Of a DNA stretch of 64,000 nucleotides, positions 2,490 through 60,692 are shown one piece after another. The notes under the pieces were generated by a model that saw nothing but the letters and a program-made list of their open reading frames with translations, made no database searches and was not told the origin of the DNA. Within the stretch, counting starts at the first letter, position 1; each line of letters opens with the position of its first letter. The stretch lies in the NCBI RefSeq assembly GCF_016903815.1, contig NZ_CP069973.1; one strand, given 5' to 3'. Source of the DNA: Escherichia coli (GTDB lineage: Bacteria > Pseudomonadota > Gammaproteobacteria > Enterobacterales > Enterobacteriaceae). The translations under genes were made by a program, and so were the position numbers.

Positions 2490-2587
2490 CCTGATGCGCT
2501 ACGCTTATCAGGCCTACATCGCTCCTGCAATGTGTTGATTTTGCAAGATTTTGTAGGTCGGATAAGGCGTTCACGCCACATCTGGCA
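2490..2587. repeat. REP/BIME-type palindromic repeats downstream of opgH
   Basis: gcctgatgcgctacgcttatcaggcctac and gtaggtcggataaggcgttcacgcc motifs typical of enterobacterial REP elements. Confidence 0.7.
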
Positions 2588-11682: not shown

Positions 11683-11733
11683 TAATCTCTATGCTCCGGC
11701 TGAAGGGATGTTTTTGCCGGACACAAAGGATAA

Positions 11734-34220: not shown

Positions 34221-34581
34221 CGTAACTTACTCATTATTCTTACATTGACGACTAAGCTGCGGGCAAAGTAACGCCTTTCCGGGTGTGAACCGATGGCCTC
34301 GTGTCTAGTCGCGTCGCCAACCTCACGGTTATCGTCAGCTCAAAGAGGCGCAGAGTGTCGGTTGCCCGTTTTTCATGCGGAAAAACAGCGCAATTATCAA
34401 AGAAACAGACTGGGTATTACTCTCCAGAAATATTTCCATCTACCGGTAAGGACTGCAACCCGCAGCCCGCTAACTGCCTGAAAGATCAATACGTCTTACG
34501 CCATTGCTGCGTGGATGATCGGTCGGGCAAAATGGGTTATTCCGTAAAATTTCTTGTTTTAACAAGGATGGACACGGAAAC
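34221..34581 (-). promoter_or_regulatory. rne 5' untranslated leader (autoregulatory)
   Basis: Long untranslated region upstream of the rne ATG; its extent (about 360 nt) is taken from established E. coli knowledge, not measured here. Confidence 0.55.
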
Positions 34582-35863: not shown

Positions 35864-36448
35864 CTATCCCATCAGCGGGTTTTTCCCTTCCCGACGTAAC
35901 ATCTGACACAGCGCGATTAGCGGTAAACCAACCAGCGTGTTAGGATCACGCCCCTCTAAACGCTCAAACAGCGTAATGCCAAATCCTTCACTCTTAAAGC
36001 TACCCGCGCAGTGCAGGGGATGCTCTTTACGCACGTAATTATCAATCTCCGCCTCGCTCAGGTGACGGAAATGGACGTCAAAAGGCTCCACTTCTGTTTG
36101 TAGATGCCCATTCGCCGAATTAAACAACGCCAGTCCAGTATAGAAGGTGACGATATTGCCGCTGGCTTTGCGTAATTGCAGACGGGCATTTTCTTCCGTT
36201 AACGGTTTACCGGTGATTTCGCCATCAAGAACACATACCTGGTCTGAACCAATAATTAAATGATCCGGATAACGTGACGCCAGAGATTGCGCTTTTTCTT
36301 GTGCCAGTCGAAGCACCAACTGTCGCGGTGATTCGTCGCTGCGTGGGGTTTCGTCGACCTCTGGTGCTGCACATTCAAAAGAGATTTGCAGTTTTTCCAG
36401 AAGAGCGCGACGCCAGGGCGAGGTGGAGGCTAAAATAAGTTTAGGCAT
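35864..36448 (-). CDS. yceF: Maf-like nucleotide pyrophosphatase YceF
   Basis: 194-aa protein from [20 protein letters not shown]... Confidence 0.9.
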
Positions 36449-36634
36449 ATTTTTTTCCATCAGATATAGCGTATTGATGATAGCCATTTTAAACTATGCG
36501 CTTCGTTTTGCAGGTTGATGTTCGTTATCAGCACTGAACGAAAATAAAGCAGTAACCCGCAATGTGTGCGAATTATTGGCAAAAGGCAACCACAGGCTGC
36601 CTTTTTCTTTGACTCTATGACGTTACAAAGTTAA

Positions 36635-43057: not shown

Positions 43058-43080
43058 AGGTCCGCTTGCGGGCCTTTTTT
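43058..43080 (+). terminator. Rho-independent terminator of the acpP-fabF transcript
   Basis: aggtccgc-ttg-cgggcct hairpin followed by TTTTTT, 25 bp after the fabF stop. Confidence 0.7.
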
Positions 43081-43081
43081 C

Positions 43082-43794
43082 TTGTGCACAGAAAACCCCC
43101 AGCTAGGCTGGGGGTTCCGGAAAGCTTTCAGCTTTAAGCCAGTTATTAAAACCCCTTTTGATTTGTTAAAACACCTTGCGGTCTGGCAACTGCAAGTGTC
43201 AAACAAGAAATCAAAAGGGGGTCCCAATGGGGAACGAAAAGAGCTTAGCGCACACCCGATGGAACTGTAAATATCACATAGTTTTTGCGCCAAAATACCG
43301 AAGACAGGTGTTCTACAGAGAGAAGCGTAGAGCAATAGGCAGTATTTTGAGAAAGCTGTGTGAGTGGAAAAGTGTACGGATTCTGGAAGCTGAATGCTGT
43401 GCAGATCATATCCATATGCTTGTGGAGATCCCGCCCAAAATGAGCGTATCCGGCTTTATGGGATATCTGAAAGGGAAAAGCAGTCTGATGCTTTACGAGC
43501 AGTTTGGTGATTTGAAATTCAAATACAGGAACAGGGAGTTCTGGTGCAGAGGGTACTACGTCGATACGGTGGGTAAGAACACGGCGAAGATACAGGATTA
43601 CATAAAGCACCAGCTTGAAGAGGATAAAATGGGAGAGCAGTTATCGATTCCCTATCCGGGCAGCCCGTTTACGGGCCGTAAGTAACGAAGTTGGATGCAA
43701 ATGTCAGATCGTGTGCGCCTGTTAGGGCGCGGCTGGTAAGAGAGCCTTATAGGCGCATTTGAAAAACCTCCGGCTATGCCGGAGGATATTTATT
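43082..43794 (+). mobile_element. IS200 (IS200/IS605 family) insertion sequence, copy 1
   Basis: About 713 bp that is apparently identical to 59980..60692 (ORF-track translations identical on both strands); encodes an HuH Y1 transposase; left-end hairpin cccccag-ctagg-ctggggg (43096..43114) and right-end hairpin cctccggc-tat-gccggagg; boundaries set by where the two copies diverge, plus or minus a few bp. Confidence 0.9.
43227..43685 (+). CDS. tnpA: IS200 transposase TnpA (HuH Y1 family)
   Basis: 152-aa protein MGNEKSLAHTRWNCKYHIVFAPKYRR...ADHIHMLVEIP...; HxH motif and Tyr-containing C-terminal region; closely matches Salmonella IS200 TnpA from memory. Confidence 0.9.
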   Translation: MGNEKSLAHTRWNCKYHIVFAPKYRRQVFYREKRRAIGSILRKLCEWKSVRILEAECCADHIHMLVEIPPKMSVSGFMGYLKGKSSLMLYEQFGDLKFKYRNREFWCRGYYVDTVGKNTAKIQDYIKHQLEEDKMGEQLSIPYPGSPFTGRK

Positions 43795-47340: not shown

Positions 47341-48138
47341 ATGTTTTTAGTCGACTCACACTGCCATCTCGATGGTCTGGATTATGAATCTTTGCATAAG
47401 GACGTGGATGACGTTCTGGCGAAAGCCGCCGCACGCGATGTGAAATTTTGTCTGGCAGTCGCCACAACATTACCAGGTTATTTACATATGCGGGATCTGG
47501 TAGGCGAACGTGACAACGTCGTATTTTCTTGTGGCGTGCATCCACTCAACCAGAATGATCCCTACGATGTAGAAGATTTACGCCGTCTGGCGGCAGAAGA
47601 GGGTGTTGTAGCGCTGGGTGAAACCGGTCTGGATTATTATTACACACCGGAAACTAAAGTACGTCAGCAAGAGTCCTTCATTCATCATATCCAGATTGGT
47701 CGTGAACTGAACAAGCCGGTTATCGTCCATACCCGTGACGCCCGCGCCGATACGCTGGCAATTCTGCGCGAAGAAAAAGTGACGGATTGCGGTGGCGTAC
47801 TACACTGTTTTACAGAGGACAGAGAAACGGCGGGTAAATTACTGGATCTCGGATTTTACATCTCCTTTTCCGGCATTGTGACCTTCCGTAATGCGGAGCA
47901 ACTGCGCGATGCTGCGCGTTATGTCCCCCTGGATCGGTTACTGGTAGAAACTGACTCACCTTACCTTGCACCGGTTCCGCATCGAGGAAAAGAGAATCAA
48001 CCTGCGATGGTTCGTGACGTTGCAGAATACATGGCTGTGTTGAAAGGTGTTGCCGTTGAAGAACTGGCGCAGGTAACCACCGATAACTTCGCCCGTCTGT
48101 TTCACATCGACGCTTCCCGCCTTCAATCCATCCGTTGA
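47341..48138 (+). CDS. ycfH: TatD-family metal-dependent nuclease YcfH
   Basis: 265-aa protein from [16 protein letters not shown]... Confidence 0.92.
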
Positions 48139-48312
48139 ATGAGTTTTTTTAAAGCTCGTAATTAATGGCTAAAACGAGTAAAGTTCACCGCCGAAAATTG
48201 GGCGGTGAATAACCACGTTTGAAATATTGTGACATATGTTTTGTCAAAATGTGCAACTTCTCCAATGATCTGAAGTTGAAACGTGATAGCCGTCAAACAA
48301 ATTGGCACTGAA

Positions 48313-48338
48313 TTATTTTACTCTGTGTAATAAATAAA
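48313..48338 (+). promoter_or_regulatory. Candidate Mlc operator in the ptsG promoter region
   Basis: AT-rich inverted repeat TTATTTTACTCTGTGTAATAAATAA about 100 bp upstream of the ptsG ATG; ptsG is a known Mlc target. Confidence 0.4.
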
Positions 48339-48393
48339 GGGCGCTTAGATGCCCTGTACACGGCGAGGCTCTCCCCCCTTGCCACGCGTGAGA

Positions 48394-48432
48394 ACGTAAA
48401 AAAAGCACCCATACTCAGGAGCACTCTCAATT
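48394..48432 (+). promoter_or_regulatory. ptsG 5' UTR / ribosome-binding region, the site paired by the sRNA SgrS
   Basis: aaagcacccatactcaggagcactctcaatt immediately upstream of the ptsG ATG, recalled as the SgrS pairing region. Confidence 0.5.
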
Positions 48433-49866
48433 ATGTTTAAGAATGCATTTGCTAACCTGCAAAAGGTCGGTAAATCGCTGATGCTGCCGGTATCCGTACT
48501 GCCTATCGCAGGTATTCTGCTGGGCGTCGGTTCCGCGAATTTCAGCTGGCTGCCCGCCGTTGTATCGCATGTTATGGCAGAAGCAGGCGGTTCCGTCTTT
48601 GCAAACATGCCACTGATTTTTGCGATCGGTGTCGCCCTCGGCTTTACCAATAACGATGGCGTATCCGCGCTGGCCGCAGTTGTTGCCTATGGCATCATGG
48701 TTAAAACCATGGCCGTGGTTGCGCCACTGGTACTGCATTTACCTGCTGAAGAAATCGCCTCTAAACACCTGGCGGATACTGGCGTACTCGGAGGGATTAT
48801 CTCCGGTGCGATTGCAGCGTATATGTTTAACCGTTTCTACCGTATTAAGCTGCCTGAGTATCTTGGCTTCTTTGCCGGTAAACGCTTTGTGCCGATCATT
48901 TCTGGCCTGGCTGCCATCTTTACTGGCGTTGTGCTGTCCTTCATTTGGCCGCCGATTGGTTCTGCAATCCAGACCTTCTCTCAGTGGGCTGCTTACCAGA
49001 ACCCGGTAGTTGCGTTTGGCATTTACGGTTTCATCGAACGTTGCCTGGTACCGTTTGGTCTGCACCACATCTGGAACGTACCTTTCCAGATGCAAATTGG
49101 TGAATACACCAACGCAGCAGGTCAGGTTTTCCACGGCGACATTCCGCGTTATATGGCGGGTGACCCGACTGCGGGTAAACTGTCTGGTGGCTTCCTGTTC
49201 AAAATGTACGGTCTGCCAGCTGCCGCAATTGCTATCTGGCACTCTGCTAAACCAGAAAACCGCGCGAAAGTGGGCGGTATTATGATCTCCGCGGCGCTGA
49301 CCTCGTTCCTGACCGGTATCACCGAGCCGATCGAGTTCTCCTTCATGTTCGTTGCGCCGATCCTGTACATCATCCACGCGATTCTGGCAGGCCTGGCATT
49401 CCCAATCTGTATTCTTCTGGGGATGCGTGACGGTACGTCGTTCTCGCACGGTCTGATCGACTTCATCGTTCTGTCTGGTAACAGCAGCAAACTGTGGCTG
49501 TTCCCGATCGTCGGTATCGGTTATGCGATTGTTTACTACACCATCTTCCGCGTGCTGATTAAAGCACTGGATCTGAAAACGCCGGGTCGTGAAGACGCGA
49601 CTGAAGATGCAAAAGCGACAGGTACCAGCGAAATGGCACCGGCTCTGGTTGCTGCATTTGGTGGTAAAGAAAACATTACTAACCTCGACGCATGTATTAC
49701 CCGTCTGCGCGTCAGCGTTGCTGATGTGTCTAAAGTGGATCAGGCTGGCCTGAAGAAACTGGGCGCAGCGGGCGTAGTGGTTGCTGGTTCTGGTGTTCAG
49801 GCGATTTTCGGTACTAAATCCGATAACCTGAAAACCGAGATGGATGAGTACATCCGTAACCACTAA
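48433..49866 (+). CDS. ptsG: Glucose-specific PTS enzyme IICB
   Basis: 477-aa protein with IIC membrane domain and C-terminal IIB domain. Confidence 0.97.
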
Positions 49867-52115: not shown

Positions 52116-52448
52116 TTGAAATCTCTAGGTTTATGTTGTCGTCAGGCTCATGCCGGAGGAGGGTGATGAGCGGTTATATTTAGTGTGCGAATAATTTTGC
52201 ATGTAAATGCAAATGAGAAATATACGCATTCATATTTGACGTGTAAACCAAACAGAGAATGTCTTTTCAGCGCATTCGCAGGCAGAAATGGGAATAATGG
52301 CGATATATACGGCAGCAAAACGATTTTTTGCTTAAGAAATCGTGAGTTAAGGTTGAAAGAGCAGGTTTAACTCGACCATACTCTATACTCGCAGTGTGGC
52401 GCGGCGTAGCATGGCGCAACGCATGGCTATTTGAAAAAGGAAAATGTC

Positions 52449-59950: not shown

Positions 59951-59979
59951 CCCCGCGACATGCCGTGTCGCGGGGATTT
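59951..59979. terminator. Terminator hairpin downstream of bhsA (ancestrally shared with convergent ldtC)
   Basis: ccccgcgaca-tgccg-tgtcgcgggg 10-bp stem, flanked by TTTTTT upstream and ATTTT downstream. Confidence 0.7.
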
Positions 59980-60692
59980 TTGTGCACAGAAAACCCCCAG
60001 CTAGGCTGGGGGTTCCGGAAAGCTTTCAGCTTTAAGCCAGTTATTAAAACCCCTTTTGATTTGTTAAAACACCTTGCGGTCTGGCAACTGCAAGTGTCAA
60101 ACAAGAAATCAAAAGGGGGTCCCAATGGGGAACGAAAAGAGCTTAGCGCACACCCGATGGAACTGTAAATATCACATAGTTTTTGCGCCAAAATACCGAA
60201 GACAGGTGTTCTACAGAGAGAAGCGTAGAGCAATAGGCAGTATTTTGAGAAAGCTGTGTGAGTGGAAAAGTGTACGGATTCTGGAAGCTGAATGCTGTGC
60301 AGATCATATCCATATGCTTGTGGAGATCCCGCCCAAAATGAGCGTATCCGGCTTTATGGGATATCTGAAAGGGAAAAGCAGTCTGATGCTTTACGAGCAG
60401 TTTGGTGATTTGAAATTCAAATACAGGAACAGGGAGTTCTGGTGCAGAGGGTACTACGTCGATACGGTGGGTAAGAACACGGCGAAGATACAGGATTACA
60501 TAAAGCACCAGCTTGAAGAGGATAAAATGGGAGAGCAGTTATCGATTCCCTATCCGGGCAGCCCGTTTACGGGCCGTAAGTAACGAAGTTGGATGCAAAT
60601 GTCAGATCGTGTGCGCCTGTTAGGGCGCGGCTGGTAAGAGAGCCTTATAGGCGCATTTGAAAAACCTCCGGCTATGCCGGAGGATATTTATT
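59980..60692 (+). mobile_element. IS200 (IS200/IS605 family) insertion sequence, copy 2
   Basis: Apparently identical to copy 1, offset 16,898 bp, same orientation; left end abuts the bhsA terminator T-tract and right end lies 12 bp from the ldtC stop. Confidence 0.9.
60125..60583 (+). CDS. tnpA: IS200 transposase TnpA (HuH Y1 family), copy 2
   Basis: Protein identical to the copy 1 TnpA. Confidence 0.9.
   Translation: MGNEKSLAHTRWNCKYHIVFAPKYRRQVFYREKRRAIGSILRKLCEWKSVRILEAECCADHIHMLVEIPPKMSVSGFMGYLKGKSSLMLYEQFGDLKFKYRNREFWCRGYYVDTVGKNTAKIQDYIKHQLEEDKMGEQLSIPYPGSPFTGRK

Follow-up and report, generated by a model that had tools for sequence, protein, structure and literature searches.

The 294 bp between ycfH and ptsG (positions 48139-48432 of the 64,000-nucleotide stretch of E. 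coli DNA analysed here, called the window below) are almost certainly the native and unaltered E. coli ptsG control region, with the repressor Mlc acting at the promoter and the small RNA SgrS acting at the ribosome-binding site. A ptsG control region that carries both mechanisms is nothing new and is already known in full detail. What the analysis indicates is that the K-12 control logic of ptsG (Mlc and CRP at the promoter, SgrS at the ribosome-binding site) has been kept intact in an E. coli of a clinical lineage, and because the control region is intact there, the knowledge gained with K-12 can be transferred directly. The importance of this beyond annotation is small.

The open reading frame that follows the intergenic region scored 1004.6 bits against the NCBIfam equivalog NF008301 (PTS glucose transporter subunit IIBC, cut-off 647), and its product is identical to K-12 PtsG at 477 of 477 residues. 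Alignment of 48139-48470 with K-12 MG1655 (NC_000913.3) gave 332 aligned columns with 100% identity and zero differences. The first-pass annotation had named this alignment beforehand as the refutation test, and the divergence that would have counted against it was absent. A control region query of 322 bases was found as a single copy in 5,424 of 5,426 complete E. coli genomes, 5,382 of which carry it at an identity of at least 99%. Given both the identity to K-12 and the near-universal presence in E. coli, this is the standard allele in which both mechanisms were worked out. Five of the 5,424 matches sit on records labelled as plasmids, which are probably mislabelled replicons. The features of the region are collected in Table 1.

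Table 1. Features of the ptsG control region, with their mean identity to the window in the cross-species comparison.
Feature	Position	Strand	Basis or remark	Mean identity
ycfH	end at 48138		left neighbour of the ycfH-ptsG intergenic region	
Second Mlc-type operator, TTTTTTTAAAGCTCGTAATTAAT	48144-48166	.	matches the strict Mlc pattern	0.74
CRP-type site, AAACGTGATAGCCGTCAAACAA, 22 bp	48279-48300	.	read from sequence; conserved block	0.82 (block 48281-48302)
Mlc operator O1, TTATTTTACTCTGTGTAATAAAT, 23 bp	48313-48335	.	published rules, K-12 identity, orthologs	0.90
Likely P1 -10 hexamer, TTTACT (4/6 vs TATAAT)	48317-48322	+	inferred from +1; inside O1	
ptsG P1 start (+1)	48330	+	derived from PMC3089445 residue numbering; predicted here	
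5'-proximal hairpin, AGGGCG-CUUAGA-UGCCCU	48338-48355	+	+9 to +26; MFE and centroid folds	
SgrS pairing site on ptsG mRNA	48405-48424	+	+76 to +95; -28 to -9 from ATG	
Core SgrS duplex, AUACUCAG (ptsG A82-G89)	48411-48418	+	8 Watson-Crick pairs with SgrS C174-U181	0.94
Shine-Dalgarno, AGGAG	48417-48421	+	overlapped by the SgrS duplex; invariant in aligned orthologs	
ptsG coding sequence (EIICB-Glc, 477 aa)	48433-49866	+	ATG at 48433	
First 40 coding bases of ptsG				0.93
Intervening spacers				0.36-0.39

Mlc-type operators and promoter P1

Upstream of ptsG, an AT-rich inverted repeat had been annotated at 48313-48338 and proposed as a candidate Mlc operator. The repeat is present, and its true end is at 48337, one base earlier than had been given. 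The 25-nt AT-rich element, TTATTTTACTCTGTGTAATAAATAA (48313-48337), is a perfect inverted repeat only in its outer 6-nt arms, TTATTT (48313-48318) and AAATAA (48332-48337), with an imperfect inner part. The pattern TTATTT-N13-AAATAA has a single match in the 64-kb window and was found in 0 of 100 dinucleotide-preserving shuffles. The operator went unreported by the repeat finder, the minimum length of which was 7, since its perfect arms measure just 6 nt.

Mlc sites have been described as 23-bp quasi-palindromes in which conservation is complete only for TT at -6,-5 and AA at +5,+6, A and T predominate in the arms (±7 to ±11), and positions ±11 are A or T, whereas they are C or G in high-affinity NagC sites (PMC4288165, PMC1874608). 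Mutation of the TT or AA abolishes repression completely, at NagC operators as well as those of Mlc in general; in the same work a ptsG-lacZ fusion is the Mlc reporter and ptsG is the standard Mlc-specific target (PMC4288165). The proposal of an Mlc operator held up, in that the 23 bp at 48313-48335 (O1) follow these published rules and are identical in sequence to K-12. The TT (48318-48319) and the AA (48329-48330) are separated by 9 bp around a functional centre at 48324, which is one base off the geometric centre of the 25-mer (48325). The arms, TTATT and TAAAT, are AT-rich over ±7 to ±11 with imperfect dyad symmetry, and both ±11 positions (48313 and 48335) are T, as in Mlc-type rather than high-affinity NagC-type sites. 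By the operator rules, the ptsG bases footprinted by Mlc are probably those of O1.

A minimal form of the rule, W-N4-TT-N9-AA-N4-W, had no specificity (60 matches in the 64-kb window versus 77 expected). It is necessary rather than discriminating, and the stricter published description was used instead. The strict pattern, WWWWWTT-N9-AAWWWWW, gave three matches in 64 kb where 0.38 are expected. Those at 48313 and 48144 are both upstream of ptsG, and one at 52174 is in the fhuE-hinT intergenic region. This sole other strict match (52174-52196, TTATATTTAGTGTGCGAATAATT) is upstream of fhuE, which is on the minus strand, and may simply be AT-rich Fur-box DNA.

The position of O1 relative to P1 was obtained from published residue numbering, in which the SgrS-protected AUACUCAG is A82-G89 of the ptsG mRNA (PMC3089445). 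As these bases are 48411-48418 of the window, the predicted transcription start is 48330 and the 5' UTR is 103 nt long; in the register used here the residue called C92 in that paper is a G. With this derived start O1 is centred on -6 and extends from -17 to +6, so covering the -10 region and the start site, a geometry that, as derived, is classic for excluding RNA polymerase. Mlc, a ROK-family repressor, would bind 48313-48335 over the P1 -10 and +1 and thereby exclude RNA polymerase. Repression ends while glucose is being taken up, since dephosphorylated PtsG then holds Mlc sequestered at the membrane.

P1 was missed by a consensus promoter scan and has no recognisable -35 hexamer; the scan did not call it owing to the lack of a -35 match, which is expected of a CRP-dependent promoter. 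The half-sites of the CRP-type site, cGTGA and TCAaA, each match TGTGA/TCACA at four of five positions, and its centre (48289.5) is at -40.5 from P1, the class II consensus being near -41.5. From its agreement with the consensus and from the ptsG literature, 48279-48300 is a putative CRP site, and from the class II activator position at -40.5 it would supply activation. The one site that the promoter scan did report, 48241-48269, is at chance level (1 found versus 0.8 expected).

Cross-species comparison used a degenerate pattern for the first 12 ptsG codons, which retrieved 120 loci from Enterobacterales and Vibrio, 108 of them with at least 300 nt of upstream sequence. O1 has a recognisable ortholog in 104 of the 108 loci, and all but one of these (103/104) match the strict rule. 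Invariant in the 104 orthologs are TTATTTTA, the TT and AA, and the central T (position 0), variation being limited to -3 to +4 (mostly -2, +1 and +2) and to +7, +8, +10 and +11. In 102 of 108 loci ACTCAGGAG occurs no more than 45 nt from the ATG, the exceptions including the three Vibrio loci. By these alignments O1 and the SgrS site stand out as phylogenetic footprints in a set of about 100 Enterobacterales species. The ptsG comparison offers a clean example of phylogenetic footprinting, with repressor, activator and sRNA sites at 0.82-0.94 and spacers at 0.36-0.39.

These data bear on the possibility that the AT-rich repeat is mere promoter DNA, that is, the -10 or an extended AT-rich P1 region with incidental symmetry. 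The repeat does overlap the inferred -10 hexamer and +1, its palindrome is imperfect (7 of 11 or 7 of 12 symmetric positions), and the minimal TT-N9-AA rule occurs at chance level in the window. However, a promoter constrains the -10 hexamer and not +1 to +6, whereas the operator AA (+5,+6) and the AT-rich arm to its right, both situated past the transcription start, either do not vary or take only W across 104 species. Moreover, chance would yield the strict pattern just 0.38 times per 64 kb, and the sequence is identical to that of K-12 ptsG, the standard Mlc target in PMC4288165. We consider an explanation by promoter composition very improbable. Binding of O1 by the paralogous repressor NagC in place of Mlc is less credible still: although the operator logos of the two proteins are essentially indistinguishable, with only TT/AA fully conserved (PMC4288165), the T at each ±11 position of O1, where high-affinity NagC sites have C or G, is conserved in 104/104 and 103/104 orthologs, and no Mlc/NagC cross-regulation occurs at physiological protein levels, ptsG being an Mlc-specific target (PMC4288165).

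Several loci depart from the common arrangement. The three Vibrio ptsG loci have no O1 ortholog near the homologous position and lack ACUCAGGAG, carrying AUCAGGAGCAUAAAC or UUCAGGAGCAUAAAC instead. In Citrobacter youngae ATCC 29220, Enterobacter sp. BIGb0383 and Pseudocitrobacter the ptsG 5' UTR is lengthened by an insertion of 80-123 nt that begins at about +70 or later and ends before the SgrS site, so that the Mlc operator is found at -188 to -232 from the ATG. In C. youngae ATCC 29220 the inserted sequence resembles an ERIC element (GTGAATGACAGGAGCTTACTAGAGTAAGTGACTGG), and a second C. youngae strain is without the insertion.

With O1 read as the Mlc operator of P1, the second strict-pattern match upstream of ptsG has its centre at 48155, just after the ycfH stop codon and at -175 relative to P1; centre to centre, it is 169 bp away from O1. 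It presumably corresponds to the second Mlc site already known for ptsG, which goes with the minor promoter P2. In 73 of 103 loci the strict pattern recurs at a distance of 166-170 bp on the upstream side of O1, most often at 168 bp (about 16 helical turns), and the sequence between the two Mlc-type sites is poorly conserved. This spacing suggests that the two operators may act jointly, with an Mlc tetramer bridging them and looping out the DNA between, a reading that, taken together with that of IS200-mediated amplification given below, we hold to be rather unlikely. The first-pass annotation had covered a stretch that misses the upstream Mlc-type site and the UTR hairpins and has the CRP-type site outside it or at its edge.

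Between the two Mlc-type sites there is also a GC-rich hairpin, 48184-48209 (TTCACCGCCGAA/TTGGGCGGTGAA), with 12-nt arms that are 92% complementary and a 2-nt gap. It is moderately conserved (0.51), is not followed by a T-run, and could represent either a structure at the ycfH 3' end or a portion of the leader transcribed from the minor ptsG promoter.

SgrS pairing at the ribosome-binding site

The sequence aaagcacccatactcaggagcac (48402-48424) lies directly upstream of the AGGAG and overlaps it, and had been put forward as the SgrS pairing site around the Shine-Dalgarno sequence. That assignment was borne out by a seed duplex at 48405-48424 that reproduces the published core. The query was K-12 sgrS (77367-77593, 227 nt), and pairing was scored with the single-stranded 20-nt seed, SgrS nt 168-187, against 40-nt tiles on both strands of the window. 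The seed forms 17 bp with 48405-48424 at -27.1 kcal/mol, which ranks first among the 12,792 tiles of both strands (mean -11.1, sd 2.9) and lies about 5.4 sd below the mean. When a longer segment (SgrS nt 157-190) was used, 10 of 1,000 target shuffles were as good.

Two key SgrS residues fall within the core, where G176 pairs with C48416 and G178 with C48414. Pairing of SgrS C174-U181 with ptsG A82-G89, and the critical roles of G176 and G178, have been established by mutation, compensatory mutation and footprinting (PMC3089445, PMC2760806); the published result for SgrS G176C/G178C is that repression of ptsG'-'lacZ is not retained. The flanking pairs formed here (48405-48409 and 48421-48424) overlap the weak protection reported in PMC3089445, C92 excepted. 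The duplex includes the Shine-Dalgarno AGGAG and hence overlaps the ribosome-binding site. Repression by SgrS depends on Hfq, and the decay that goes with it depends on RNase E (PMC3089445, PMC2760806). Under sugar-phosphate stress, Hfq-dependent SgrS would pair with 48405-48424 through the 8-bp core at 48411-48418, and the duplex over the Shine-Dalgarno sequence would block translation initiation and lead to RNase E-dependent decay.

A different outcome was obtained when RNAduplex was given the full 227-nt SgrS and the 150-nt ptsG leader. The result was a 190-nt "duplex" with large interior loops, an artefact of unrestricted loops, with an energy (-66.4 kcal/mol) no better than the shuffle mean (-72.7), 868 of 1,000 shuffles being at least as good.

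The full-length result, together with the GGAG inside the duplex region, which would be conserved regardless, could be put in favour of the view that 48405-48424 is conserved for ribosome binding alone and that its complementarity to SgrS is a coincidence. However, the full-length value is the artefact just described, whereas no site on either strand of the 64 kb gives a better duplex once pairing is restricted to the seed. In addition, AUACUCA, which precedes the Shine-Dalgarno sequence and is not required by the ribosome, is among the most strongly conserved stretches, and compensatory mutations and footprints have been published (PMC3089445, PMC2760806). Finally, the SgrS seed is invariant even in a divergent sgrS allele. 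Coincidence is hardly believable on this evidence, and we read 48405-48424 as the SgrS pairing site.

The divergent allele is found in strain 7/2 (NZ_CP023820.1), which has both IS200 junctions described below in common with the window. Its sgrS is 89% identical to that of K-12, with nt 132-161 and 188-213 heavily changed and the seed, nt 162-187, unchanged. A same-lineage genome, that of strain 7/2, is thus predicted to encode a cognate SgrS with an intact seed. E. coli sgrS as a whole is dimorphic, with 3,229 genomes at least 99% identical to K-12 and 2,158 genomes at 80-90%. The annotation of strain 7/2 lists no setA; past sgrS/sgrT the first gene it gives is leuD.

The remainder of the 5' UTR contains two hairpins. 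The 5'-proximal one (Table 1) is moderately conserved across species and may play a role in mRNA stability. The second, 48362-48383, is formed by a C-rich tract (GGCGAGGCTCTCCCCCCTTGCC), has 7 bp and appears in both the MFE and the centroid folds. The cross-species identity of this tract is about 0.7-0.8. The 5' UTR fold as a whole is no more stable than its shuffles (z = -0.86). Two terminator-like matches on the minus strand, 48355-48338 and 48428-48401, are incidental, since they represent the UTR hairpin and the A-run read on the opposite strand. A search of 48100-48470 found no Rfam family, and none was expected because the SgrS target site is not a structured RNA family.

IS200 copies flanking the ptsG segment

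Placement of ptsG within an IS200-bracketed segment, as had been described, was confirmed by two identical direct copies that flank the gene. The copies, 43079-43794 and 59977-60692, are each 716 nt long, are both on the plus strand and lie 16,898 bp apart. Each encodes an IS200 transposase and has an Rfam STnc490 match (43094-43217 and 59992-60115). The enclosed segment is pabC-yceG-tmk-holB-ycfH-ptsG-fhuE...bhsA. Among the 5,426 complete E. coli genomes the fabF-side junction is present in 221 and the bhsA-side junction in 90, and the genomes with these junctions are human isolates that have about 20 IS200 copies each.

IS200 copies in this arrangement might mediate tandem amplification of the 16.9-kb segment and so raise ptsG dosage, which is a weaker possibility than that of the Mlc loop. 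Were the segment amplified, the Mlc operators and the SgrS target sites would be copied along with ptsG. More than one copy of the ptsG control region was found in none of the 5,424 complete E. coli genomes. The segment contains tmk and holB, which we take to be essential genes; cells carrying a reciprocal deletion between the IS200 copies would for that reason probably not survive.

Other Rfam matches above the gathering score in the window are rne5, the RNase E 5' UTR element (34245-34581, minus strand), the SraB sRNA (36442-36610, plus strand), the PyrC leader (11683-11732, minus strand) and the ES036 sRNA (2510-2552, minus strand). All four are expected in this part of the E. coli chromosome.

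Relation to known systems

The closest known system for the ribosome-binding site is the SgrS-ptsG pairing of K-12, with which the window shares the target, the 8-bp core and the flanking pairs out to SgrS G168-U187. The difference lies in sgrS, strain 7/2 having the divergent, 89% identical allele in which seed nt 162-187 are those of K-12. At the promoter the counterpart is K-12 ptsG P1 with its Mlc operator, which has the same bases, the same TT-9 bp-AA core and AT-rich arms, A or T at ±11 and the same overlap with the -10 and +1. There is no sequence difference from K-12 P1, and what differs is the host, which belongs to a clinical lineage of E. coli that has about 20 copies of IS200. The NagC operators of nagE, nagB and galP are the same kind of 23-bp quasi-palindrome with TT and AA at ±5,6. 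High-affinity NagC sites, however, carry C or G at ±11, whereas O1 carries T at both positions.
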